DNA from: Candidatus Dojkabacteria bacterium HGW-Dojkabacteria-1
GTDB taxonomy: Bacteria; Patescibacteriota; Dojkabacteria; SC72
Direction of reading: 5' to 3'
DNA length: 64,000 nt
Assembly: GCA_002840365.1 (NCBI GenBank)
Contig: PHAO01000001.1
Coordinates: 303,514 to 367,513 of the forward strand
This document shows, piece after piece, positions 589 to 59,855 of this stretch. The notes under the pieces were generated by a model. The model had not been told where the DNA came from. It made no database searches and saw only the letters and a program-made list of their open reading frames with translations. Position 1 is the stretch's first letter. The number at the start of each line of letters is the position of its first letter. The position numbers were made by a program, and so were the translations under genes.

Positions 589-1241
589 TGTTAATTACTA
601 AGCTTGAATATCAAAAAAGGGATCCTAATAGGGTGAATCTTTACCTTGAGGGTAAATTTTTCTGTGGTATTTCTCTTGATACATTAGCTAAAGAAGCTTT
701 GTATGAAGGGTTGAATATAGAAGAAGAGGTATTGGATAGGATTGTGAAGGAAGAGCTTAAAGCTAGATTCCTTTCAAGGGCTTTGGAATATATCTCTAAA
801 AGTCCTAAGACAGAGTTTCAAATAAAGAAATATTTAAAAGAGTTAAAGTTTAAAAAGAAGAATATTTGGTACAAAGAAGGCATAGAGATTGATTGGGAAA
901 GTATGATTGACAGTATTGTTCTGAAATTAAAAGAGCTTAAATATATAGATGATGAGAATTTTGCTCGTATGTTTGTTCAGAGTAGAATGAGAATAAAACC
1001 AAGAGGTAAGAATGTAATGATTTCAGAATTGATTTCTAAAGGGGTAAGCAAAGATACAGCTCAAATGGTTTGTGATGAGGAAGTAGAGGATGAATATGAA
1101 TTGTTAAAGAAAACTTTTAGAAAAAAATACAAAGGTAAGAAATTGGATACAAAGGATAGTAAGATGGTTGGATTTCTTTACAGAAAGGGTTTTTCATGGG
1201 ATTTAATTGAGAAGCTAAGTAACGATGACACTGAAGAGTAA
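588..1241 (+). CDS. recX: Recombination regulator RecX
   Basis: 217-aa basic protein directly after recA, with the ATG overlapping the recA stop (TAATG). Size, position and helical-repeat character fit RecX. Confidence 0.7.
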   Translation: MLITKLEYQKRDPNRVNLYLEGKFFCGISLDTLAKEALYEGLNIEEEVLDRIVKEELKARFLSRALEYISKSPKTEFQIKKYLKELKFKKKNIWYKEGIEIDWESMIDSIVLKLKELKYIDDENFARMFVQSRMRIKPRGKNVMISELISKGVSKDTAQMVCDEEVEDEYELLKKTFRKKYKGKKLDTKDSKMVGFLYRKGFSWDLIEKLSNDDTEE

Positions 1242-2928
1242 AAGTAATTGGATATTGCCTGAAAAGATAGAAATAGACGATTTAATATCCTTTTTACTTA
1301 AAACTAGGAATATTGAAGATGAGGAAAACTTCCTTAATCCTTCATTAGAAAGTATTCCTTTGTTTGAATATCTTCATGATTCTAAATTAGCAGCAAAAGA
1401 GATAGTAGAAGCAGTTAAAGATGGAAAGAAGATTCTCATACATGGTGACTTTGATGCAGATGGTATTTCCTCTGTAAGTATTCTTTGGGAATTTCTTTTT
1501 AAAGAAGTATCAAATTATATTGGTAAGCAAACAGATGTTGTTCCATATATACCAAGTAGGATAGATCAAGGATATGGACTTACTAAGTCTTCACTTGAGG
1601 ATATGGTTAATATGAAAGCTGATATGTTAATAACCGTTGATTGTGGAGTGAGAGATAAGGAATTGATAAAGGAGTACAGAGAAAAACATGGTATTAATTT
1701 TGTAATTACAGATCATCATCAACCCCCTGAAGATATTTTAGATAGTCTCGACTATACTCTTGTTCATCCAATGTATCCTCATTTTGAATATCCAGAGACA
1801 AATGTATGTGGTGCTTTTGTAACTTTTCTCCTAACTCAGGCAATTAGGAAAGAATTAGGAATGGATTCCAAAATTAGTGAAGAAAGTGAGGGTTTAGATT
1901 TAGTTGCATTGGCTACTGTTACAGATATTATGCCTCTTTTAGATTCTAATAGGGCGGTTGTATATTGGGGATTGGAACAGATAAAGAGGGGGAAAAGGTT
2001 AGGTTTAAATGAATTAATAGATATTGCTGGTATAGAGAGAAATGAGATAGATAGCTATCATTTAGGATATATTCTTGGTCCAAGAATAAATGCTGCAGGA
2101 AGAATAGGGTCTCCCTTGGATGCTGTTAAAATGCTTGTTAGTGACAAGGAGAGTGTATGTAAAAATATTGCCAATATTCTTAATGAAACCAACTATCAAA
2201 GACAATATATGACTCAAAGTAGTATAGAGGAGGCTGAGCAAATGATTGGTGATATCGCGGAAAAGAAATTACTCTTTGTTGTAGGAGATGCCTGGCATGA
2301 GGGTATAGTTGGTTTAGTAGCAGGAAAACTTAATGAAAAATATCATAGACCAGTACTCGTAGGTACAAGATCTAAAGAAGGAATACGTGGTTCAGCAAGA
2401 AGTATAGAAGGGTTTGATATAACTAAGGCGTTAACAGAGTGTAGTGAGTATTTAGATAGATATGGTGGTCATGAACAAGCAGCTGGGTTTACGATAAAGA
2501 ATGGAATGGAAAAAGATTTTGCAAAATGTATACATGAGATATCAGATAGGGAAATTACAAAGGAGATGTTAACAAAAGAATTAAAGGTAGATTTACTCCT
2601 TGGAAGTGATGATATTACAAAGGGTTTAGTAGAGAAGTTAGATATGTTTAAACCATATGGAAATGGCAACAGGAAGCCCCTAATAGGTATGACGGATCTA
2701 GTGGTATTTAAAAAACAGCCAATGGGAAAACTTGGAAATCATATGAAGTTAATATGTAAAGGGGAAGGTATAGACTTGATAACCTTTGTAATGTTTAATT
2801 GCGATGAGGATATTGAAGAGATACAGGTCGATAGTGTAATAGATGTTGTAGGAAGTGTAGGCATAAATACATGGAATGGAAATGAGCAGGTACAATTTCT
2901 TGTAAAGGAGTGGAGATTTAAAGTATAA
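1225..2928 (+). CDS. recJ: Single-stranded-DNA-specific exonuclease RecJ (DHH/DHHA1 family)
   Basis: HGDFDADGISS and ITDHHQ (DHH) motifs, a C-terminal GGH motif (DRYGGHEQAAGF), 567 aa. Start overlaps the recX end. Confidence 0.9.
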   Translation: MTLKSKSNWILPEKIEIDDLISFLLKTRNIEDEENFLNPSLESIPLFEYLHDSKLAAKEIVEAVKDGKKILIHGDFDADGISSVSILWEFLFKEVSNYIGKQTDVVPYIPSRIDQGYGLTKSSLEDMVNMKADMLITVDCGVRDKELIKEYREKHGINFVITDHHQPPEDILDSLDYTLVHPMYPHFEYPETNVCGAFVTFLLTQAIRKELGMDSKISEESEGLDLVALATVTDIMPLLDSNRAVVYWGLEQIKRGKRLGLNELIDIAGIERNEIDSYHLGYILGPRINAAGRIGSPLDAVKMLVSDKESVCKNIANILNETNYQRQYMTQSSIEEAEQMIGDIAEKKLLFVVGDAWHEGIVGLVAGKLNEKYHRPVLVGTRSKEGIRGSARSIEGFDITKALTECSEYLDRYGGHEQAAGFTIKNGMEKDFAKCIHEISDREITKEMLTKELKVDLLLGSDDITKGLVEKLDMFKPYGNGNRKPLIGMTDLVVFKKQPMGKLGNHMKLICKGEGIDLITFVMFNCDEDIEEIQVDSVIDVVGSVGINTWNGNEQVQFLVKEWRFKV

Positions 2929-2929
2929 T
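2900..2929 (+). promoter_or_regulatory. Putative sigma-70 promoter for the aspS leader (-35 TTGTAA 2900-2905, 18-bp spacer, -10 TATAAT 2924-2929)
   Basis: Hexamers read directly from the sequence. The -10 box overlaps the recJ stop codon, which would place a transcription start near 2936. Confidence 0.35.
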
Positions 2930-2935
2930 GAGGAT

Positions 2936-3072
2936 GTGACAGTGCAGAAATGATAAAGAGGTCCACAAGACAATTGGGGTGGCACCGCGGTAGGAATATC
3001 GTCCCCTTTCCAGTGAAGATATTGTATCTTTAATGGAGAGGGGATTTTTATTTAACATATATATTTACAAAA
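2936..3072 (+). promoter_or_regulatory. T-box-type leader RNA upstream of aspS, with antiterminator/terminator alternative
   Basis: AATTGGGGTGGCACCGCGG (2973-2990) matches the T-box consensus AANNNGGGTGGNACCGCG, including the UGGN bulge. A downstream hairpin TCCCCTTTCCA/TGGAGAGGGGA (3002-3044) is followed by TTTTTATTT. GAC-A triplets in the short 5' stem region are candidate Asp specifiers. Confidence 0.6.
3002..3053 (+). terminator. Intrinsic terminator of the aspS T-box leader
   Basis: 11-bp stem (one G.U pair) with a structured loop and a U-run, ending 20 nt before the aspS ATG. Confidence 0.55.
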
Positions 3073-4404
3073 ATGGAAAGAATCCATATTAAAGATTTAA
3101 AGGAATATATCGGAAAAGAAGTAAGAATAAGAGGAAGGGTAGATACTATTAGAGATCAGGGAAAAATACTCTTCTTAGTATTAAGAGACAGAACAGGCAA
3201 GGTACAAACAGTTGCATGGCATGGTGATGAGGAGGTATTTAAAAATGCTAAATCACTAACTAATGAATCTGTTGTAGATATCATTGGTGATGTAAAAGAG
3301 GCAAAGCAAGTTGCAACTGGCTACGAAGTAGCGATAAAGAGTTTAAAGGTTGATTCTCTTTCTAATACCCCATTACCAATCGTGATTGAGGAACCACATA
3401 CAAACAATATTTCTGCACTAGACAGAAGATTGGACTATAGATGGATAGATTTGAGGAGTGAAAGAAACTCTCTGATGATGGATGTTGCTACAACAATGGG
3501 ACATGCATTAAGAACATACTGTATAGAAAATGAATTTAAAGAAATACAAGCTCCAAGAATTATTAGTGCAGCAAGTGAATCTGGAGCTAGTGTCTTTGAA
3601 GTTAAATATTTCGACAAAAAGGCATATCTTGCTCAATCACCCCAGTTTCATAAACAGATGGGTATATCTTCTGATTTAGAAAGAGTCTTCAATATGGGTC
3701 CTGTATTTAGGGCAGAGAAGTCATTTACAACTCGTCACTTAACAGAATATACAAGTTTTGATGTTGAGATGGGGTATATAGATTCATACAAAGATGTTTG
3801 TCATTTTGAACAGGAGATGCTTAAGTATATGCTTAAGCAAGTAAAAGAGAAACATGGAGAAGAAATTAAAAGAGTTTTTGGTACAGAGGTAAAAGTACCC
3901 GAAGGAGATTTCCCATTCCTTTCTGTAGAAGAAGCAAAAAAGAAATTAGCGAAAGCAGGTGTCCCAAGTAAGGATACCGGTGACTTTTCACCTGAAGAGG
4001 AAAAAGCAATAGGGCAGATAATGGAGGAAGAAACAGGTAGTGAATTTATCTTTATGGTTGATTACCCTCATGCAAGAAGAGCCTTCTATCACATGAAAAA
4101 TGAGGAGAATCCCTCTATTGCATTAGGATTTGACCTTTTTTGGAAAGGATTAGAGATTACTACTGGAGCACAAAGAGAGCATAGGGTAGAGAATCTTAAA
4201 GAGAATGCTAAAGAAAGGGGTATGGGTGAAGAATCTCTTTCTGAGTATTTTGACTACTTTAAATATGGTTGTCCTCCACATGGTGGATTTGCAATAGGTA
4301 CTGAAAGACTCCTTATGAAGATGTTAGGCTTTGGAAGTATTCTAGAAACAACATATCTTCCAAATACACCTAATAGATTAGGAAAATTAATTGCAAGAAA
4401 GTAA
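3073..4404 (+). CDS. aspS: Aspartyl-tRNA synthetase, archaeal/eukaryotic type (class IIb; probably non-discriminating). AsnRS cannot be fully excluded.
   Basis: 443 aa with an N-terminal OB fold, class II motif 2 FRAEKSFTTRHLTEYTSFDVEM and motif 3 GGFAIGTERLLM. Length and architecture fit archaeal-type AspRS rather than the ~590-aa bacterial type. Confidence 0.75.
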   Translation: MERIHIKDLKEYIGKEVRIRGRVDTIRDQGKILFLVLRDRTGKVQTVAWHGDEEVFKNAKSLTNESVVDIIGDVKEAKQVATGYEVAIKSLKVDSLSNTPLPIVIEEPHTNNISALDRRLDYRWIDLRSERNSLMMDVATTMGHALRTYCIENEFKEIQAPRIISAASESGASVFEVKYFDKKAYLAQSPQFHKQMGISSDLERVFNMGPVFRAEKSFTTRHLTEYTSFDVEMGYIDSYKDVCHFEQEMLKYMLKQVKEKHGEEIKRVFGTEVKVPEGDFPFLSVEEAKKKLAKAGVPSKDTGDFSPEEEKAIGQIMEEETGSEFIFMVDYPHARRAFYHMKNEENPSIALGFDLFWKGLEITTGAQREHRVENLKENAKERGMGEESLSEYFDYFKYGCPPHGGFAIGTERLLMKMLGFGSILETTYLPNTPNRLGKLIARK

Positions 4405-4459: not shown

Positions 4460-5530
4460 ATGTCTAATACGTTACTTACAGTAAACAGAGAAAAGGTTCT
4501 TCCTGATGAGAGATATGATGAAAAGCTTTTTAAACAGGCTTACAAAGCTGGTTTAGAAGCTAAAGAATTAGAGAAAAAGAATTCTAAAAAGAAAAAACTT
4601 TTTAAAATATCTGTAATACTCTTTTCTTTCTTGCTTGTATTGGGAATAGTATCGAGTTTTTTTCTTTTTAAAAAGGAAAAACTTGAATATATTGAAGCCC
4701 AAGAGGAAAACAAACAGGTATCTTTTTATGAAATTCAAGATGATATTGAAATCTTACCTCTTACACTCAATATCTCAGCAAACAATATATCCGCTCAAAG
4801 TGCATTAGTATTTGATAGTAGAAATGGTTCCTTTATATTTGAAAAAAATATTGATGAGAGAAGACCTATTGCTAGTATCACTAAGCTTCTTTCTGTAATA
4901 GTTGCGCTAGAAACATTTAAACTAGATGATACCGTTGAAGTTAGTTTAGAGAATATCCCTGAAAATTTAGATTGGAAGTTAGAATTGCAAGAGGGAGATA
5001 TCATAAAGGTTGATGCTCTTTTGAAATCTATGCTTTTAAGTTCTTTTAATGATACTGCGTATATATTAGCCAATGCATATCCAAATGGAGGATACAGTGG
5101 ATTTGTAAAGGCTATGAATAACAAAGCAAAGGTATTAAGAATGGAAGACAGTATGTTTAGTAATCCCGCAGGTTTAGATAATGAGAAGAACTATTCTACA
5201 GCAAGAGATGTTGGTAAATTAGTTGCAGCTACTCTTAACTACGAGTATATCCTTGATATTACAAGCAAAGCATCAGCTAATATCTCTTGGAATTCAGGTG
5301 ATGAATTAAAGAGTAAAATCATATACACAACTAATCAATTGTATGGTGTTAATCCATATTCAAAAGGGTTGAAGACTGGTATTACCAAAGATGCAAAACA
5401 GTGTTTTGTAGGGTATTTTGTATACCCAAGTAAGGGTGAAATAATTACAGTAGTGTTAGGATCTGAAGATAGGTTTACTGATACACAAAATCTTGAAAGA
5501 TTAAGCAGGCAGGTATTAGAAAGAAAGTAA
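4460..5530 (+). CDS. D-alanyl-D-alanine carboxypeptidase (S11, PBP5/6-like) with N-terminal TM anchor
   Basis: SxxK (SITK), SxN (SFN) and KTG (KTGITK) motifs in canonical order; N-terminal hydrophobic segment. Confidence 0.75.
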   Translation: MSNTLLTVNREKVLPDERYDEKLFKQAYKAGLEAKELEKKNSKKKKLFKISVILFSFLLVLGIVSSFFLFKKEKLEYIEAQEENKQVSFYEIQDDIEILPLTLNISANNISAQSALVFDSRNGSFIFEKNIDERRPIASITKLLSVIVALETFKLDDTVEVSLENIPENLDWKLELQEGDIIKVDALLKSMLLSSFNDTAYILANAYPNGGYSGFVKAMNNKAKVLRMEDSMFSNPAGLDNEKNYSTARDVGKLVAATLNYEYILDITSKASANISWNSGDELKSKIIYTTNQLYGVNPYSKGLKTGITKDAKQCFVGYFVYPSKGEIITVVLGSEDRFTDTQNLERLSRQVLERK

Positions 5531-6823
5531 CCCTTTCTCCTTAACTGGTGCAGGAGGAAGCTCTATTTTGTCTTGTACAATTCCGTAATTGATAGCAGGA
5601 TAATATATGAAGAAATCCGCTCTTTCACCACCTTTCAATTCAGCTTGTCCTTCTACCATGTAAACAGGTTGTAAATATTGCTGCTCTGCTGTTCCTTCAA
5701 AGTAGGTAATATATATATTGTCTACTCTAAATTTGTTTACACTAACTGGAGTATAATCTCTTACTTCATCTCCAGAGCTATTAAGATATACAATACTTCC
5801 TTCTCCTTCTTGTATTTTCTGTAGTGCGAGTGATGGAGAAATTAACTCATATGTACCACAACTTTCACTCTCAATACTCCATGTATTGTATTCAATTTGA
5901 TATATATTGGGGAGAATTTTTGTAGAATCGTCTTTTGGTCCAATATATACTGATATATTTGTTTTAACTGGATACTGGTATGTAAGAAGAGTACTGAAAT
6001 TATATACTTCTACCCTTTGATCATTCACTATACTACTACCCAGTTCATATGAAAGATTCTTTCTTGTTAGACTGTCTACCATTAATTGAGCACCTTCAAG
6101 ATTTGTAGCAATTGAAATCATAGGGACTTTTCTTAAGAAATCTACCCTAATTAATTCTGCAGTTATTAAAGATTCTGCTTGAGAGAATGAACCATCTGGG
6201 TTTATATCGATAAGGTGAATAGTTGGTTGTACCTCTGTATATGCCTGATCTAATATCCCTAAACTTCTCAATGCATTAGTAGCAATTGATGGTGCCTCTC
6301 TCTCTGTTGGCAAATCTATATCTCTTCTTAATCTCCTTATCTTTTCAAAATCAGTTTTCATTGTGAAGTTTAAATCTCTTGCTCTTACTATTAAACTTCT
6401 CTGAGTACTATTATCTGCCCATACATATGCTGTAGTTCCCTGCCTTACAAATCTTTCTGGGTCAAACCCTAATTTTTTAGATAGGATTTTAGCTTCTCCT
6501 TGAGAGTTAATAATTTGCCCCAGATTGGTATATCTATATACATTAACAATATTAGGTAGACTATCTACCTTACCTGTATCGGTTTGTAATTCAAATATCA
6601 TTTCTGAATCAGGATTAATTTGTAATCCTGGTATTTCTAGTTTGTGTTTAAGGAAATCGTCTTTCTTTTCCGTACAAGCAAAGTTTGCTGTTAAGTACTC
6701 TGGTGGGAGTGTTGTTTCTCTAGAAGTAAAGAGTAACATTAATACTAAGATGAAAATGAATCCTGCTACAAGTGCTATTACTCCAAATCTTTTAGTCCAG
6801 AATGCTGCTTCAGTTAATGTCAT
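5516..6823 (-). CDS. Hypothetical membrane-anchored extracytoplasmic protein
   Basis: 435-aa ORF with an N-terminal TM helix (VIALVAGFIFILVLMLLF). No motif I recognise. Confidence 0.4.
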   Translation of the reverse strand: MTLTEAAFWTKRFGVIALVAGFIFILVLMLLFTSRETTLPPEYLTANFACTEKKDDFLKHKLEIPGLQINPDSEMIFELQTDTGKVDSLPNIVNVYRYTNLGQIINSQGEAKILSKKLGFDPERFVRQGTTAYVWADNSTQRSLIVRARDLNFTMKTDFEKIRRLRRDIDLPTEREAPSIATNALRSLGILDQAYTEVQPTIHLIDINPDGSFSQAESLITAELIRVDFLRKVPMISIATNLEGAQLMVDSLTRKNLSYELGSSIVNDQRVEVYNFSTLLTYQYPVKTNISVYIGPKDDSTKILPNIYQIEYNTWSIESESCGTYELISPSLALQKIQEGEGSIVYLNSSGDEVRDYTPVSVNKFRVDNIYITYFEGTAEQQYLQPVYMVEGQAELKGGERADFFIYYPAINYGIVQDKIELPPAPVKEKGLLSF

Positions 6824-6884: not shown

Positions 6885-8546
6885 ATGAGAACAGAGCAGG
6901 AGAATATTCAAATAGCACAATTACTTTTTCCAGAAGTAAAAGAATCAGTAGAAGATATTTTTAAAAGATACCCAAAAAGAAACTTAAATGAAGAGCAGTT
7001 AGTTCTAAGATTTGCACCTAGTCCAACAGGCTTTCTTCATATTGGGAATGTATATACTAGTTTAGTAGGATACCTTCTTTCAAAGAGAAGTAATGGTATG
7101 TTCTTACTTAGGATTGAGGATACAGATAAAGAAAGAGAGGTTGAGAATGGTATATCAGCAATAGTTAATGGTTTAAAAGGTTTTGGTATTCATTTTGATG
7201 AGGGAATGAAAAACGAACTGGAAAGCGAAGGTGAGTATGGACCATATATTCAAAGTCAAAGGATTGATATTTACAAGGTTTTTGCTAGAGATTTAGTTTC
7301 TAAAGGAAAAGCATACCTTTGTTTTGCAACACCTGAAGAATTAGAAGAGATACGAGAAAAACAAACTTCTATGAAGGTAAGAACTGGTTACTATGGTGAA
7401 TTTGCAAAATGGAGGAATGCTTCATTTGATGAAGTGATGAAGAATCTTAATTCTGGTAAACCTTTTGTAATACGATTGTATTCAAATGGAAATATTGAAA
7501 ACAAGATAAATAGTGTTGATTTGATTAAGGGTGGTGTTACTGTTTCTGAAAATGATATGGATGCTGTCCTTCTTAAGTCTGATGGATTACCAACATATCA
7601 TTTTGCTCATCCTATTGATGATACTTTGATGGGTATATCTTTTGTGACAAGAGGAGAGGAATGGTTTGCTTCTCAATCATTACATATGGAGATATTTAAG
7701 GTATTATATTTTAAACAGTTACAATATGCTCATATTTCACCTCTAATGAAAATGGATGAAGGAGGAAAGAGAAAGCTAAGTAAGAGAAAAGATCCTGAGG
7801 CTGCTGTTTCCTTCTATTTAGAAAATGGTTTCCCAATCGAAGGTGTAAAGGAATATCTTCTTAATATTGCAAATTCTAATTTCTCTGATTGGAGAATACA
7901 AAATCCTGAAAAAGGTATTGTAGAGTTTGATCTCAAATTAGAGAAGTTTAACAAGGCAGGTGCACTTTTTGATATTACAAAGTTAAATGATGTATGTAAG
8001 GAATATATTTCAAGATTAAGTGCTAAACAAGTGTATGAATATGCTCTTGAATGGGCAAGGGAATATGACTCTAGACTCTTTGAGAAGCTTACTAATCACA
8101 AGGATTACAGTATTGAAATTCTAAATATTGAGAGAGAAGGAGAAAAGATACGTAAGGATATTGTTAAATGGTCTGATGTACCATATCAAATGGAATTGTT
8201 TTTTGATGATATGTACAAAGATATGAAGAAAGAGTCTCTAGATATGAGCCTTGATTTACAAAAAGATATTTTAAATGAATACCTTGATACCTTCTATATG
8301 GGAGATTCTGCTCCAGAGTGGTTTGGGAAGATTAAGGAGATTGGAATTAAGAATGGTTTTTGTGCTGATTACAAAGAGTATGAGAAGAGTCCTAAAAAGT
8401 ATAAAGGTAAGATTGGAGATGTCGCCATGGTAATTAGGGTTGCAATAACCGGAAGAAAACAGACTCCTGATTTGTATCAAGTGATACAAGTGATGGGTGA
8501 GAACAGGATTCGTGAAAGGATAAAGGAGTATATTAATTCTCTTTAG
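6885..8546 (+). CDS. gltX: Glutamyl-tRNA synthetase (class I; likely non-discriminating GluRS)
   Basis: HIGH motif (FLHIGNVYT), KMSKS-type motif (KLSKRK), 553 aa with an anticodon-binding C-terminus. tRNA-Gln lies immediately downstream and no GlnRS is present in the window. Confidence 0.85.
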   Translation: MRTEQENIQIAQLLFPEVKESVEDIFKRYPKRNLNEEQLVLRFAPSPTGFLHIGNVYTSLVGYLLSKRSNGMFLLRIEDTDKEREVENGISAIVNGLKGFGIHFDEGMKNELESEGEYGPYIQSQRIDIYKVFARDLVSKGKAYLCFATPEELEEIREKQTSMKVRTGYYGEFAKWRNASFDEVMKNLNSGKPFVIRLYSNGNIENKINSVDLIKGGVTVSENDMDAVLLKSDGLPTYHFAHPIDDTLMGISFVTRGEEWFASQSLHMEIFKVLYFKQLQYAHISPLMKMDEGGKRKLSKRKDPEAAVSFYLENGFPIEGVKEYLLNIANSNFSDWRIQNPEKGIVEFDLKLEKFNKAGALFDITKLNDVCKEYISRLSAKQVYEYALEWAREYDSRLFEKLTNHKDYSIEILNIEREGEKIRKDIVKWSDVPYQMELFFDDMYKDMKKESLDMSLDLQKDILNEYLDTFYMGDSAPEWFGKIKEIGIKNGFCADYKEYEKSPKKYKGKIGDVAMVIRVAITGRKQTPDLYQVIQVMGENRIRERIKEYINSL

Positions 8547-8570: not shown

Positions 8571-8641
8571 TGCCGGATCGTCTAATGGTAGGACGACGGT
8601 CTCTGGAACCGTTAATCCTAGTTCGAATCTAGGTCCGGCAA
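8571..8641 (+). tRNA. tRNA-Gln (anticodon CTG)
   Basis: Hand-folded cloverleaf: acceptor TGCCGGA/TCCGGCA, anticodon stem ACGGT/ACCGT with loop CTCTGGA, T arm CCTAG-TTCGAAT-CTAGG. CCA is not encoded. Confidence 0.8.
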
Positions 8642-18836: not shown

Positions 18837-18845
18837 TGATATAAT
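18837..18845 (+). promoter_or_regulatory. Extended -10 promoter TGATATAAT for the valS leader
   Basis: TGnTATAAT read directly, giving a leader of about 233 nt before valS. Confidence 0.4.
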
Positions 18846-18852
18846 CGCATCA

Positions 18853-19085
18853 ACACAAAGACCCAGATATCACTGGAGAGTGGTGGAAAGAAAGCCATAT
18901 GGTGAGTAGACTCCAACGGTATGCTACCGAAAGAAAGCAAGACCATATATAGTGGTCTCAGAGAAGATTGTAGTAATACAATTTTGAAAAAGGGTGGTAA
19001 CACGTATATACGTCCCTTTGTAAGAGCTGATACAATGTATCATATCTTACAAGGGGATTTTTGTTTAATATAAATACAAAGAAAA
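18853..19085 (+). promoter_or_regulatory. T-box-type leader RNA upstream of valS
   Basis: AAAAAGGGTGGTAACACG (18987-19004) matches the T-box core. Antiterminator: AAAGGG [UGGUAAC bulge] ACGU-AUAU-ACGU CCCUUU. Competing terminator: CCCTTTGTAAGA/TCTTACAAGGGG (19014-19056) followed by ATTTTTGTTT. Leader length is typical of T-boxes. Confidence 0.6.
19014..19066 (+). terminator. Intrinsic terminator of the valS T-box leader
   Basis: 12-bp stem (one mismatch) plus a U-run, about 20 nt before the valS ATG. Confidence 0.55.
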
Positions 19086-21980
19086 ATGGATAGTATAAAG
19101 ATATCAAAAGAGCATAATATGCCTACTTTTCCAAACACAGAGTTGGAGATATTAAGATATTGGGAGGAAAAAGATATCTTGCGAAAATCAATTGAGCAAA
19201 GACCCACAGACAAACCATTCACCTTCTATGATGGACCAATAACTTCTAATAATAAACCCCACTATGGCCATGCTCTAACAATGGTAATCAAAGATGTTGT
19301 TCCTAGGTACAAAACTATGAAAGGCTTTAGAGTAGATAGGAGTTTAGGATGGGATTGTCAGGGTATACCTGTAGAGTATGAGGTTGAAAAGGAATTAGGA
19401 TTCGAACAGAAAGAAGATATTGAGAAATTTGGAATAGAAAAATTCAATGAGATGTGTAGAAAATCAGTTGAGAAATATCAAGGTGAGATATCTGCATTAA
19501 CTAAAAGAATGGGTAGATGGGTTAACAAAGATGAAGAGTATGCTACGATGGACTCTTCTTACATCGAAAGTGTATGGTGGTCATTAAAAGAGCTTTACAA
19601 TAAAGGATTGTTGTATCAAGGATACAAGGTAGTACCTTACTCTACTAGAGCAGGTACAACTCTTTCTAACTCGGAGGTAGCATTAGGAGGATACCAAGCG
19701 GTAGTTGACCCTGCAGTAACAGTTAAGCTTAAACTTAAGGAGAAAGATTCATATCTTCTAATATGGACTACAACTCCTTGGACACTACCAGGTAATCTAC
19801 TCGCTGCAGTTGGTAGGTCTTTTGACTATGTAGAAGTAGAATATGAAGGTGAAAAATATATAGTGGGGAAAGAGCTCGTAGAAACAATCTTTGGTAAGCA
19901 GTTAGAAATATTAAACACATACAAAGGTGAAGAGCTTGTAGGTATGGAGTATGAACCTTTATATCCTTACTACGCTGAGAAGAGCAAGGAGGGAGCATTT
20001 AAGGTAGTACATGCAGAACATGTAACTTTTGAGGATGGTACGGGTATTGTTCATCAGGCACCATATGGAGAAGAGGACTTCATATTAATGACCGGTATGG
20101 GTATTGGTATGTTTGACTATCTTGATGATCAAGGAAATATGAAAGAAGAGATAGAGCAGTTTAAGGGAATGTTCTACAAGAAGGCCAACAAATACATTAT
20201 GCAAGATCTGCAGGAGAGAAATCTTCTTTTTAAACATGAGGAATATGAGCACCAAATGCCAATGTGTTGGAGAACAAATACACCTTTAATATACAAACCT
20301 ATCAAGAGTTGGTATGTAAAGGTAACTGCTATAAGGGAATTGTTAGTAAAAGAGAACAAAAGTATAGGGTGGGTTCCAGAGCATGTAAAAGAGGGTCGTT
20401 TTGGTAATTGGTTAGAGGATGCAAGAGATTGGGCTCTAAGTAGAAATAGGTATTGGGGAACACCACTTCCAGCATGGGTATGCGACAAGTGTGGTGAAGT
20501 AGAAGTTCTTGGATCTTTTGCTGAAGTAAAAGAGAAATCTGGAGTAGAACTTAGAGATCCACATAAACCATTTGTAGATGATATTACATACAAATGTGAG
20601 AAATGTGCAGGTGAGATGAGAAGAGTAGAAGACGTAATAGATGTATGGTATGACTCAGGTGCTATGCCATTTGCAAGATTCCACTATCCATTTGAAAATC
20701 AAGAGAAATTTAAGTCTAAATATCCTGCAGAATTCATAGGAGAGGGTGTTGATCAAACAAGGGGTTGGTTCTATACCTTGCATGTACTAGGAGGAGCATT
20801 GTTTAACAAGAAAGCTTTTAAAAATGTAATAGTTAATGGTATGGCACTAGCTCCAGATGGAACGAAAATGTCCAAGAGTAAGCGCAACTATACCGAAGTA
20901 AATCTTGTATTAGATCAACTTGGAGCAGACGCATTAAGGTTGTACTTTGTTAGCTCCCCAATTGTTAATGGTGAAGAGGTTGTATTTAGTGAAAAGTTTC
21001 TAAAAGATATTACAGCTACTGTATTACTTCCATATTGGAACTCAGTAAAATATTTCCTCAACTATCAATCTCAATTCAAGTGGAAATATGATTCCAATTG
21101 GAGTACGGACAATGTAATGGATAGGTGGATATTGGCAAGATTAAATCAAACAGTACAAGAGGTAGAAGAAGGTATGGAAAGTTACAAGCTTCACAAAGCA
21201 TCTAAACCAATATTCAATTTAATTGACGATTTGTCTAAATGGTATATAAGAAGGTCTAGAGAAAGATTTGTTAATGGTGATAAGCAGGCTTTGGATACTC
21301 TTCATTTTGTACTTTTTGAAATATCAAAATTAATGGCTCCTTTTGCACCATTCATATCTGAATCTGTATACATGACACTAGCAAATGGATTTATACCATC
21401 TGTAAAAGAGTCTGTACATTTAGAGGATTTTCCATCTGTAAACAAAGAGTTCTTAAATGAAGAACTCCTTTCTAATATGTCTAAGGTAAGAGATATATGT
21501 TCCATAGGGTTAAATATTAGAGATGAGAAAAAACTTAAAGTAAGACAGCCTCTTTCTAAGGTATACATACCTTTGGAAGAGAAAGATATGATGGAAATAG
21601 TTAAGGGTGAGTTAAATGTAAAAGATGTAATATATTCGGAAAAGAAAGTAGAGGGAGAAGGTATAGAATCTCAAGAGGCAAAGTATGTATTTGTTTCTCT
21701 TGATACAAAGATTACAGAAGAATTGAAAGAGGAAGGGTTGTTAAATGAAATTGTAAGGGGATTGCAAGTTGCTAGAAAGGATAGTGGTTGTCAAATGGGT
21801 GAAATGATATCAGTGAAATATAGGAGTGAGAGTAAGGAAATATTAGATTTAATCGAGAAAAACAAGGAGAAACTTTGTAAGATGATATTTGTAGAATCAT
21901 TTGAAAAATCCCAAGAGATAACAGGGAATACTGTGATAAAGGTTGAAAATTATACTTTAGAGATAGAGATAGTTAAGTAG
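19086..21980 (+). CDS. valS: Valyl-tRNA synthetase
   Basis: 964 aa; HYGH motif (PHYGHAL), KMSKS motif (KMSKSKRN), and the editing and coiled-coil C-terminal domains. Confidence 0.9.
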   Translation: MDSIKISKEHNMPTFPNTELEILRYWEEKDILRKSIEQRPTDKPFTFYDGPITSNNKPHYGHALTMVIKDVVPRYKTMKGFRVDRSLGWDCQGIPVEYEVEKELGFEQKEDIEKFGIEKFNEMCRKSVEKYQGEISALTKRMGRWVNKDEEYATMDSSYIESVWWSLKELYNKGLLYQGYKVVPYSTRAGTTLSNSEVALGGYQAVVDPAVTVKLKLKEKDSYLLIWTTTPWTLPGNLLAAVGRSFDYVEVEYEGEKYIVGKELVETIFGKQLEILNTYKGEELVGMEYEPLYPYYAEKSKEGAFKVVHAEHVTFEDGTGIVHQAPYGEEDFILMTGMGIGMFDYLDDQGNMKEEIEQFKGMFYKKANKYIMQDLQERNLLFKHEEYEHQMPMCWRTNTPLIYKPIKSWYVKVTAIRELLVKENKSIGWVPEHVKEGRFGNWLEDARDWALSRNRYWGTPLPAWVCDKCGEVEVLGSFAEVKEKSGVELRDPHKPFVDDITYKCEKCAGEMRRVEDVIDVWYDSGAMPFARFHYPFENQEKFKSKYPAEFIGEGVDQTRGWFYTLHVLGGALFNKKAFKNVIVNGMALAPDGTKMSKSKRNYTEVNLVLDQLGADALRLYFVSSPIVNGEEVVFSEKFLKDITATVLLPYWNSVKYFLNYQSQFKWKYDSNWSTDNVMDRWILARLNQTVQEVEEGMESYKLHKASKPIFNLIDDLSKWYIRRSRERFVNGDKQALDTLHFVLFEISKLMAPFAPFISESVYMTLANGFIPSVKESVHLEDFPSVNKEFLNEELLSNMSKVRDICSIGLNIRDEKKLKVRQPLSKVYIPLEEKDMMEIVKGELNVKDVIYSEKKVEGEGIESQEAKYVFVSLDTKITEELKEEGLLNEIVRGLQVARKDSGCQMGEMISVKYRSESKEILDLIEKNKEKLCKMIFVESFEKSQEITGNTVIKVENYTLEIEIVK

Positions 21981-58048: not shown

Positions 58049-58345
58049 TTAACTTTCTTCTATAGCTCCAAATATTTTCCCATACACCTTAACACAACCC
58101 TTCTCAGTATACTTTGCATTTGAGAGGACATCCTTCTGTGTTAATGATTCTTCTACAATATCATCTCTTAAATCATCAAAGGGAAGATGTTTTTTCATTG
58201 GTTGAACATTAGAAGTATCTACCTCTTGTAATTGATTGGCAGATTCTAATATTGTTTGCATTTGAGGTGTAAATTTCTCTAACTCTTCATCAGAGAGTTT
58301 AATTCTAGATAGTTCTGATATATGTTTTAATGTTTTTTTATCCAT
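58049..58345 (-). CDS. gatC: Asp/Glu-tRNA amidotransferase subunit C
   Basis: 98 aa; ...ISELSRIKLSDEELEKF... is the GatC signature. Start overlaps the gatB stop. Confidence 0.8.
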   Translation of the reverse strand: MDKKTLKHISELSRIKLSDEELEKFTPQMQTILESANQLQEVDTSNVQPMKKHLPFDDLRDDIVEESLTQKDVLSNAKYTEKGCVKVYGKIFGAIEES

Positions 58346-59855
58346 TTAACTTTTCCATTAAAATTGATCTTGCACTATTTGGGTCTGCAGTTCCTTTTGA
58401 TTTCTGCATTACTTGACCAACTAGAAAGCCTAAAGATGCTTGTTTACCTGACTTAAAATCCTCCACAGCTTTGCTGTTTTCCTTTATTACTTCTTCGACA
58501 ATTGAAGAGAGATTACCTGTTGTATTTCTAGCTTCTGTTTTAGCTTTTGTAATTAAGTCTCCCAAATCTATCTTCTTTTCAATCGATTCTCTTAATAGCT
58601 CTTCTGCCTTACTTCTTGTAAGTATTTTCTCTTCAAACTCTAGTATTAATTTTGCCAAATCTTCCTTCTGGATATTCTCCTCTGTTATATCTAGATTATT
58701 GTCATTAGCGATAGAGAAGACAGCACCAGTTAACCAATTCGCACATGCTTTTGCAGCTTTTTTTGTATCTATATCTTTTGAAACAAGAGAGAGTACAGCT
58801 TCATAGTATATTGATATATCTCTGTCAGAAGTTAAAACATTAGCATCATATTCAGAAAGCTCATAATCATTTATGTATCTATCTCTTTTTTCATCGGGTA
58901 ATTCGATAATTTCTTTAGAGATTCTTTCAATATCCTTTTCTGTTACTTCAATAACAGGAATATCAGGTTCTGGCATATATCTATAGTCATCTGCTGTTTC
59001 TTTCGATCTTTGGAATACTGTAATTGATTTGTTTGCATCCCATCCTCTTGTCTGCTGCTTAATTTCTTTCCCTTCTTCAATTTCTTTTATTAATCTCTCT
59101 ACTTCGTATGTAATAGATTTCTCTACGGCAGAGATTGATCCAATATTTTTTATCTCAACTTTTGGATTAAGCATATAATTACCAATAGGTAATATCTTAC
59201 CGTCTTTGTATTCCCATTTTCCTTTCTCCTGCACTGAGATATTTGGCTCACATCTCATTTGGCCTTTTTCCATATCTGCATCTGATATGCCCAAATATCT
59301 AGCAATTTGCCTTATTTTTGTTGCTAATTCCTTTGCCTGATATGCACTTCTAATATTAGGTTTAGTTACTAATTCAATTAAAGGCATTCCTGATTTGTTG
59401 TAATCAATCAAAGAATATTCTAATCCACTATTTATTTCAGTGTGGTGAGTTGATTTTGCAACATCTTCTTCCTGGTGTATTCTCTCAATCTCTATTTTGT
59501 ATTTTTTACCATCTTCATCCCTTATCTCAATGTATCCATCAGAGCAGATTGCTCTTTTGTACTGACTAATCTGATACCCTTTGGGTAAATCTGGATAGAA
59601 GTAATGTTTTCTGTCGAAATGAATTTCATTTTCGATATCACAATTGGTTGCTAATCCAAGTAAAATACAAAGTTCAATAGCTCTTTTATTTGGTACAGGT
59701 AGTGCTCCAGGCAATCCTAAACATACTGGGCAAACTTGAGTATTTGGTTCTTTATGAAAATATTTAGTTGAACAACTACAGAACATTTTACTCTCTGTCT
59801 TTGTCTGTATGTGTATTTCTAATCCAATTATTACATCGTATTTTGATGATTCCAC
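58338..59855 (-). CDS. gatB: Asp/Glu-tRNA amidotransferase subunit B
   Basis: N-terminus YDVIIGLEIHIQTKTESKMFCSC...VCPVCLGLPGALP, and a C-terminal YqeY-like tail ...SLGFLVGQVMQKSKGTADP. Confidence 0.9.
   Translation of the reverse strand: MESSKYDVIIGLEIHIQTKTESKMFCSCSTKYFHKEPNTQVCPVCLGLPGALPVPNKRAIELCILLGLATNCDIENEIHFDRKHYFYPDLPKGYQISQYKRAICSDGYIEIRDEDGKKYKIEIERIHQEEDVAKSTHHTEINSGLEYSLIDYNKSGMPLIELVTKPNIRSAYQAKELATKIRQIARYLGISDADMEKGQMRCEPNISVQEKGKWEYKDGKILPIGNYMLNPKVEIKNIGSISAVEKSITYEVERLIKEIEEGKEIKQQTRGWDANKSITVFQRSKETADDYRYMPEPDIPVIEVTEKDIERISKEIIELPDEKRDRYINDYELSEYDANVLTSDRDISIYYEAVLSLVSKDIDTKKAAKACANWLTGAVFSIANDNNLDITEENIQKEDLAKLILEFEEKILTRSKAEELLRESIEKKIDLGDLITKAKTEARNTTGNLSSIVEEVIKENSKAVEDFKSGKQASLGFLVGQVMQKSKGTADPNSARSILMEKLNG

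Follow-up and report, generated by a model that had tools for sequence, protein, structure and literature searches.

The 144-nt spacer between recJ and aspS, in the 64,000-nt stretch of Candidatus Dojkabacteria DNA analysed here (the window), carries a leader that we read, with a probability of about 0.55, as a T-box-derived transcription attenuator. This attenuator would have a full 3′ discriminator and a terminator, would be without Stem I and Stem II, and would use a block at its 5′ end to read tRNA-Asp. That the leader contains a working discriminator/terminator switch of the T-box type is highly probable from its sequence, and the chances that the 5′ block acts as a specifier, i.e., that it pairs with the tRNA-Asp anticodon, appear even. 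A natural minimal T-box with two contacts, in which a 5′-terminal single-stranded specifier (involving up to the whole 7-nt loop) and a standard discriminator act co-transcriptionally, falls just short of even odds. As to its structure, we treat the aspS leader as a new form of T-box. The preliminary description of this locus had proposed a compact T-box-type attenuator in front of aspS, and the core, the antiterminator and the mutually exclusive terminator are indeed all present.

The gene under the control of the leader had been described as encoding an archaeal-type, probably non-discriminating AspRS. This assignment is borne out, as the aspS product matches NF003483 at 470 bits (cutoff 353) and TIGR00458 at 393 bits (cutoff 368). 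GatC and GatB are also encoded in the window, and a GatA-like amidase is encoded just past the window end; hence, the indirect Asn pathway is present. The relatives of this AspRS all came from Candidatus Dojkabacteria (WS6) or Patescibacteria MAGs. The coordinates of the leader elements and of the genes are collected in Table 1.

Table 1. Elements of the aspS leader, neighbouring genes and the second T-box leader in the window.
Feature	Position	Strand	Description
recA (partial), recX			both within the window
recJ	1225-2928		stop codon TAA at 2926-2928
Promoter	2900..2929	+	-35 TTGTAA 2900-2905, 18-nt spacer, -10 TATAAT 2924-2929; sigma-70-like, from consensus scan, 10/12 matches
5′-terminal block GUGACAGUGCA	2936..2946	+	candidate specifier GAC 2938-2940, then purine A2941
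A-rich single-stranded linker	2947..2955	+	8-15 nt in orthologs; length and sequence variable
Stem III and flanks	2956..2973	+	AAGAG (RRRxG) 2956-2960; G2961-C2963/G2969-C2971; loop CACAA; AA 2972-2973; from cmscan alignment
Antiterminator	2976..3006	+	A1 2976-2979/3003-3006; bulge UGGCACC 2980-2986; A2 2987-2992/2997-3002; loop GGAA; from RF00230 alignment
Intrinsic terminator	3003..3053	+	17-bp hairpin 3003-3043, then A-UUUUU-A-UUU
aspS	3073-4404	+	443 aa, non-discriminating archaeal-type aspartate--tRNA(Asn) ligase; gene under leader control
ileS T-box leader	18849-19066		upstream of ileS
ileS	19086-21980		TIGR00392, 879 bits
Further window genes			D-Ala-D-Ala carboxypeptidase gene; unknown gene on the minus strand; gltX; tRNA-Gln

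Between positions 2936 and 3049 the window holds a canonical T-box discriminator (AAGAG-Stem III-AA, A1, bulge and A2) together with an overlapping terminator. The T-box core, AAUUGGGGUGGCACCGCGG, lies at 2972-2990. GGGTGGNACCRCG has a single exact match within the window, and GGGTGGCACCGCG, located in the recJ-aspS spacer, is the sole exact match of the T-box core pattern in the window. The helices of the antiterminator are GGGG/CCCC (A1) and GCGGUA/UAUCGU (A2), and the 7-nt bulge fits UGGNACC, so that its UGGC is complementary to a 3′-GCCA end. The discriminator domain, with its RRRxG-Stem III-AA element, is defined as necessary and sufficient for the sensing of aminoacylation (Li et al. 2019, reviewed in PMC7583486), and a G.U pair at the base of A2 serves as a steric gate against 3′-aminoacyl groups (PMC7583486). 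Every feature listed for aminoacylation sensing (RRRxG-Stem III-AA, bulge and G.U gate) is present in the leader.

The conservation of these elements was analyzed in 14 orthologous leaders. Five of them belong to reference genomes (L001, L002, L003, L012 and L019), three (L021-L023) came from a metagenome pattern scan that returned three recJ-aspS junctions, and the remaining ones (L033-L037 and L051) were found via AspRS homologues. The 3-bp core of Stem III does not vary among the orthologs. As fourth pair, most leaders have C.A; L036 has C-G, and L051, whose Stem III is longer and is flanked by AAGUG, has A-U. The pairs of the antiterminator are retained in all 14 leaders, and the wobble that closes A2, G2987.U3002, is found in 12 of them and is replaced by A-U in L036 and L051. 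Since both the antiterminator and the 5′ block are nearly invariant, they offer no covariation evidence either way.

Such evidence comes from the terminator. In the alignment 99.5% of the cells of its stem are paired and six pairs have changed on both sides, a result that was equalled by none of 500 shuffles. The comparison of recJ-aspS junctions, which the preliminary description had suggested, thus showed that the core and the terminator, the latter with compensatory changes, are conserved in the 14 orthologs. The stem had been described as 11 bp long, but it actually has 17 bp, arranged as 10+7 (3003-3012/3034-3043 and 3014-3020/3026-3032), and is followed by AUUUUUAUUU. The 5′ strand of the terminator holds the 3′ strand of A1, and therefore terminator and antiterminator are mutually exclusive. 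The predicted stability of the terminator is -24.7 kcal/mol versus -12.0 kcal/mol for Stem III plus antiterminator, and the fold z-score of -3.2 is further evidence for the terminator. In two independent assemblies, L019 and L037, the block and the discriminator are retained and the 3′ half of the terminator is missing. A start-codon sequestrator, in which CUUUCC would pair with GGAAAG, was considered for these two leaders, and was rejected as not convincing (z-scores of -1.3 and -0.9, with an overlap of one base with A1).

A search with the Rfam T-box model, RF00230, had been put forward as a check on the leader, and it returned a covariance-model match. The match covers positions 2863-3009 and scores 40.1 bits, below the gathering score of 93, with an E-value of 2e-5 (whole window, all families); five orthologs gave 39-44 bits, also under 93. 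With Rfam gathering thresholds the whole window yields tRNAs only, and the T-box matches appear with E-value reporting. The 40-bit match exceeds what is expected by chance, and a standard pipeline would leave it unannotated. In the window, the posterior probability of the alignment is high only from AAAGAG-Stem III onward, and in the five orthologs it is likewise high for Stem III and the antiterminator. Because Stem I and Stem II are absent, the score comes wholly from the discriminator. As the gathering score was not reached and no Stem I was found, we do not file the leader as a canonical member of the family.

The alignments set apart an invariant and a variable portion of the leader. Invariant are GTGAYAGTGCR, AAG(A/U)G-GTC...GAC-AA and GGGGTGGCACC(G/A)CGGTA...TATCGTCCCCTT; the gap that separates the block from the -10, the A-rich linker and the loops of Stem III and of A2 are variable. 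When the window was compared with its relatives, identity amounted to 91-100% in the 5′ block and to 87-100% in Stem III plus antiterminator, as against 39-58% at the four-fold sites of aspS; the near-identity of the leader therefore points to strong purifying selection on it. This bears on whether the leader is a decaying relic, i.e., a canonical T-box that lost its 5′ half by rearrangement beside recJ and that now works as a constitutive partial terminator or is inert. Such a relic would fit the absence of Stem I and Stem II, the Rfam score of 40 against a threshold of 93, the lack of the leader in L009, L038 and L039, and the lack of the terminator 3′ half in L019 and L037. However, neither a relic nor a plain terminator would preserve UGGCACC or the purines of RRRxG and AA. 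Moreover, in 14 leaders whose aspS four-fold sites are near saturation, little or no change is seen in the bulge, A1, A2, the block or the flanks of Stem III, and loops and linkers vary while the terminator changes by compensation. We consider the decay of a former T-box improbable.

At its upstream end the leader is bounded by a promoter that, as proposed in the preliminary description, overlaps the stop codon of recJ (TTGTAA-18-TATAAT, 2900-2929, over 2926-2928). Both hexamers are unchanged in the 11 orthologs that have the same recJ end. In L036 and L051 recJ is shorter and a different promoter, TTCCAA-N18-TGTATAAT, is found in intergenic DNA; here too the -10 precedes GTGACAGTGC by 5 nt, and the downstream part of the leader is unchanged. 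Transcription most probably starts at about G2936, seven nt past the -10, so that the predicted RNA would open with 5′-GUGACAGUGCA. Throughout the 14 loci the -10 sits 5-7 nt before the block, and this gap is variable in both length and sequence; hence, there is no room for a Stem I. The aspS leader lacks Stem I and, likewise, Stem II and the IIA/B pseudoknot. No consensus helix was predicted in the first ~25 nt of the leader, there is no sequence that could form the distal Stem I platform of interdigitated T-loops that receives the tRNA elbow, and, unlike in the ultrashort-Stem-I class, there is no short hairpin with the codon in its apical loop.

It had been suggested previously that Stem I is either drastically minimised or extends back into recJ. 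The shortage of room on which this proposal rested is real, but the extension into recJ did not hold. A normal Stem I encoded in the 3′ end of recJ would require transcription from further upstream or read-through from recJ; there is no terminator between recJ and the leader, and the cmscan alignment extends Stem I positions back to 2863. In that part, however, the alignment has low posterior probability, 54 of the 82 Stem I positions are deleted, and the model columns fall at differing sites, with many non-pairs, from ortholog to ortholog. Furthermore, upstream of the -35 recJ varies freely at third-codon positions, up to the final ~10 codons, where the promoter lies, and L036 and L051, with an earlier recJ end and unrelated sequence upstream of the -10, have the same block and discriminator. 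A Stem I within recJ is accordingly the least probable of the alternatives, with hardly any likelihood left to it.

In the place of Stem I, the predicted transcript begins with the conserved block, whose consensus in the orthologs is GUGAYAGUGCR. Among the 14 leaders only two changes were found in it, GAC to GAU in L012 and A to G at the last base in L036. If transcription starts at G2936, GAC-A would occupy positions 3-6 of the transcript. GAC and GAU are both Asp codons, and the base that follows is a purine, as usual for T-box specifiers. Two GAC-A motifs had been noted before as fitting an Asp specifier. The position of the first one, 2938-2941, is the one retained here; the second one lies at 2969-2972 rather than at 2967-2970, and it was rejected because it corresponds to the 3′ strand of Stem III and the conserved AA. 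The first seven nt of the block, GUGACAG (2936-2942), match, as an exact reverse complement, the E. coli tRNA-Asp anticodon loop, CUGUCAC, a complementarity that was judged on the E. coli sequence and that may not be the host's. This loop is widely conserved among bacteria. GTGACAG is present once in the window when both strands (128 kb) are considered, versus 3.9 copies expected, and the chance of its falling in the 40-nt stretch concerned is ~1e-3. In T-box specifiers a 3′-C is preferred and Watson-Crick pairing with the anticodon is strongly preferred (PMC7778990); the preference for a 3′-C is obeyed in 13 of the 14 leaders.

The same block could instead be conserved for reasons other than tRNA reading, such as the initially transcribed sequence, the stability of the transcript, or a site for a protein or an RNA. 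The discriminator would then be functional on its own, and the leader would sense the free 3′ ends of G73 tRNAs (Asp, Asn and others). Several observations are in line with this: the discriminator domain alone suffices for aminoacylation sensing (PMC7583486), the tRNA-Asn of the window has G73 too, the block is right at the promoter, and its GUGCR half is conserved and yet is given no role by the specifier model. On the other hand, the only internal change of the block is a synonymous Asp wobble, its first 7 nt exactly complement the tRNA-Asp anticodon loop with a 7-mer that is unique in the window, and the codon-anticodon contact is the strongest and most specific one in T-boxes (PMC7583486). 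A second copy of the block was found neither in the window nor in the ~450 kb of related DNA searched, and the block is not palindromic, which argues against a shared operator. Altogether, a block without specifier function seems rather unlikely to us, and a specifier remains our preferred reading of it.

Other structures that might involve the 5′ region were considered and rejected. A lock helix that would join the block (GUG...GUGC) to the T-box bulge and A2 (GCAC-CGC), with a predicted -7.4 kcal/mol, is not significant, since shuffled blocks pair at least as well in 49% of the cases anywhere in the leader and in 25% of the cases on the T-box region. A hairpin formed by the block and the bases between it and the -10 relies on the pairing of a U-run with an A-run in L003 and L012, and is absent in the window and in L019, L023, L035 and L036. 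The MFE helix GGUCCAC/GUGG-ACC is lost in L012 and L051, and no consensus pairing was predicted for the linker. In the window, GUG-ACA-GUG-CAG-AAA-UGA is an ORF that could be taken for a leader peptide; it has no Asp codon, and neither its length nor its stop is conserved.

With respect to the tRNA partner, the UGGC of the bulge calls for a G73, which is found in E. coli tRNA-Asp and also in the tRNA-Asn(GUU) of the window. No tRNA-Asp of the host was detected by ARAGORN in the window or in the related loci scanned, and the flanks of the source contig gave only tRNAs for Val, Gln and Gly; a scan for anticodon-arm-like hairpins with CTGTCAC gave nothing usable. The duplex predicted for the block has -9.6 kcal/mol with the Asp loop versus -5.5 kcal/mol with the Asn loop, CUGUUAA. 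These values are relevant to whether tRNA-Asn could be the effector instead of, or besides, tRNA-Asp, so that the expression of aspS would be tied to the indirect Asn pathway. The enzyme also charges tRNA-Asn, GatCAB is present, the G73 of tRNA-Asn(GUU) fits UGGC, and Clostridium acetobutylicum provides a precedent (Saad et al. 2012). Reading of GAC or GAU by the anticodon GUU, however, requires a G.U pair at the first codon position, and T-boxes favour Watson-Crick specifiers (PMC7778990), in addition to the weaker duplex. We regard tRNA-Asn as a very improbable effector, and take tRNA-Asp as the candidate ligand in what follows.

In the mechanism that we propose, the default state would be the one in which the 17-bp terminator forms and aspS is off. 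The anticodon loop of an uncharged tRNA-Asp would pair with the single-stranded specifier at the 5′ end of the RNA, over 5 to 7 positions versus the usual 3, and its free 3′-GCCA end would pair with the UGGC of the T-box bulge. The tRNA 3′ end would stabilise Stem III and the antiterminator over the more stable terminator, so that the RNA polymerase could continue into aspS. The distance from the anticodon to the acceptor end would be bridged by the 16-23 nt that lie between Stem III and the purine following the codon, and the extended pairing with the anticodon loop would compensate for the loss of the Stem I scaffold and of the elbow contact. Among the T-box contacts, that between codon and anticodon is the strongest and most specific, followed by that of the 3′ end with the discriminator and then by that with the elbow (PMC7583486); therefore, the leader would keep the two strongest contacts. 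However, T-boxes that act on transcription as a rule depend on a long Stem I to capture the tRNA quickly, and a truncated Stem I scarcely binds tRNA without Stem II (PMC7583486). That both stems are absent here speaks most strongly against a leader that reads tRNA, and it is also what makes the proposal interesting.

The aspS genes that carry the leader form one clade on a crude NJ tree, with L012 set apart; the nearest relatives of the L012 AspRS in the homologue list are leader-bearing, and its tree position is probably a rooting artefact. Three close relatives with the same recJ-aspS synteny (L009, L038 and L039) are without the T-box leader, and in one of them, L038, a promoter of the L036/L051 type is followed by a plain leader of ~40 nt without T-box. 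In more distant Dojkabacteria other genes are found upstream of aspS, and a TATAAT is located 10-40 nt before the ATG. The clade with the leader is narrow, and a single GAC to GAU change is thin support.

A regex search that allowed up to 2 mismatches, on ~450 kb of Dojkabacteria DNA, found further T-box cores only in aspS and ileS leaders, and a pattern scan of viral contigs gave only chance matches in GC-rich coding sequence. The second T-box of the window precedes ileS. It was matched by RF00230 at 18849-19020 with 49.2 bits, also below threshold. This leader has an ultrashort Stem I, CCAG-AUAUCA-CUGG, whose apical loop contains AUC-A, in agreement with the Ile target, and it also has a Stem II, a IIA/B region, Stem III, a UGGU bulge and a terminator. 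The element is also found before ileS in L039, whose aspS is leaderless. The presence of a second, reduced T-box in the same genome indicates that T-box regulation exists in this lineage.

To our knowledge, Stem I is regarded as the tRNA-recognition module in every known T-box. A literature search of incomplete coverage returned no report of a T-box for CPR/Patescibacteria, nor of a T-box without Stem I. If the proposed reading of the aspS leader is true, Stem I is dispensable in nature, a new structural class has been missed by Rfam-based annotation, and T-boxes extend to CPR/Patescibacteria. A conserved leader without Stem I or Stem II would be the smallest natural T-box; it would offer a ~70-nt system in which to ask how much scaffold is needed for the reading of tRNA identity and for co-transcriptional kinetics, and it might provide a compact part for engineered tRNA-responsive switches. 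For CPR bacteria, which rely on scavenging for their amino acids, very few regulators are known. Judging from these leaders, RNA switches that sense tRNA would control at least aspS and ileS in them. As both elements score far below the Rfam threshold, reduced T-boxes are probably missed systematically in the annotation of metagenomes.

Among the known systems, the glyQS-type T-box (RF00230) shares most elements with the aspS leader: RRRxG-Stem III-AA, A1, a 7-nt UGGN bulge, A2 with its G.U pair, a competing intrinsic terminator, a single-stranded linker before Stem III, the lack of Stem II, and an aaRS gene downstream. The glyQS type has a Stem I, whereas the aspS leader is without it, and hence has no K-turn, no specifier loop and no elbow platform; its candidate specifier is single stranded at the start of the transcript, with only 19 nt separating it from the Stem III flank. 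An ultrashort Stem I is found in ileS T-boxes of actinobacteria (Sherwood et al. 2015; PMC7583486). These T-boxes present the codon in the apical loop of a hairpin, are mostly translational, and need Stem II together with the IIA/B pseudoknot to bind tRNA (PMC7583486). The aspS leader resembles them in that the elbow platform is given up and the presentation of the codon is minimal, and the ileS leader of the window is of this type. In contrast, the aspS leader has neither the hairpin, nor Stem II, nor the pseudoknot, and it ends in a transcription terminator. Both leaders of the window combine an absent or reduced Stem I with a transcription terminator, whereas short Stem I's mostly go together with translational control (PMC7583486).

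With regard to the gene controlled, AspRS had been called an unusual T-box target, and it is unusual, but it is not without precedent, since a T-box is reported upstream of genes of the indirect Asn-tRNA pathway, with a non-discriminating AspRS, in Clostridium acetobutylicum (Saad et al. 2012), and in this respect the two leaders are alike. The aspS leader differs from that element in its Asp codon, in the absence of Stem I and in belonging to a CPR bacterium. The Clostridium acetobutylicum element, the subject of two papers by Saad et al. (JBC in 2012, PNAS in 2013), controls tRNA-dependent amidation and is reported to be a Firmicute T-box of full length, in which Stem I is present and the specifier is AAC (Asn).

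The arrangement of recJ and aspS is the same in three loci from close relatives of the window, L009, L038 and L039, and a T-box leader is absent from the recJ-aspS junctions of L009 and L039 and from L038:1-102. The L038 promoter, TTCCAA...TGTATAAT, is that of the related loci L036 and L051, and it is followed by a plain leader of ~40 nt that resembles an 'empty site'. In this clade, therefore, a clean gain or loss of the T-box leader has taken place in the stretch from promoter to start codon. A further state was observed in L019 and L037, two independent assemblies of one sublineage. Both retain the complete discriminator (Stem III and the antiterminator with the T-box bulge), and the terminator 3′ half is absent from both aspS leaders. 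The conserved block that opens the inferred transcript is retained in L019; the L037 contig begins within the leader. In both, CUUUCC could form a helix with the GGAAAG located at the start codon of aspS, although the fold falls short of significance. This state represents either regulation that was recently lost or a translational variant of weak effect.

In leader-lacking Dojkabacteria (L007, L014, L015, L016, L018 and others) the ATG of aspS is preceded at a distance of just ~10-40 nt by a TATAAT box, without a visible Shine-Dalgarno sequence upstream of the gene; an obvious one is also absent for the aspS of the window. The closeness of the box to the ATG and the lack of a visible Shine-Dalgarno sequence suggest that this group uses very short or leaderless mRNAs and Shine-Dalgarno-independent initiation.

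Features of the window and of the leaders that lack the terminator 3′ half
Feature	Location	Strand	Remark
aspS leader, L019	L019:2906-3003		no terminator 3′ half
aspS leader, L037	L037:1-83		no terminator 3′ half
ORF, 435 aa	window 5516-6823	-	
gltX (GluRS)	window 6885-8546		
tRNA-Gln (CUG)	window 8571-8641		
T-box leader of ileS	window 18849-19066	+	RF00230 match, sub-threshold
ileS	window 19086-21980	+	downstream of second T-box
GatC and GatB	window ~58049-59855	-	adjacent

No T-box precedes gltX in the window. The tRNA-Gln gene lies ~25 nt or less downstream of gltX, a pairing kept in those related loci that extend beyond gltX (L024-L027, L033-L039 and L051). A GatA-like amidase is encoded apart from GatCB, ~1 kb past the window end (L030:11464-12888). 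Together with GatCAB, the pairing suggests that the GluRS is non-discriminating and has its substrate, tRNA-Gln, encoded next to it. The 435-aa ORF, which lies between gltX and the carboxypeptidase gene and has no NCBIfam match and no Pfam match on record, is conserved at this place in the related loci covering the region.

The T-box ahead of ileS scored 49.2 bits against the RF00230 threshold of 93, is preceded by an extended -10 promoter (TGATATAAT, 18837-18845), and is kept upstream of ileS in L039 (18443-18738). Its Stem I is ultrashort (CCAG, 18863-18866, with CUGG, 18873-18876), and the apical loop AUAUCA carries AUC-A (18869-18872). Stem II, a IIA/B region and Stem III are also present, the bulge is UGGUAAC (core 18992-19004), and the 3′ part holds a terminator and U-run. 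This leader shares the architecture of actinobacterial ileS-type T-boxes, but its end is a transcription terminator.
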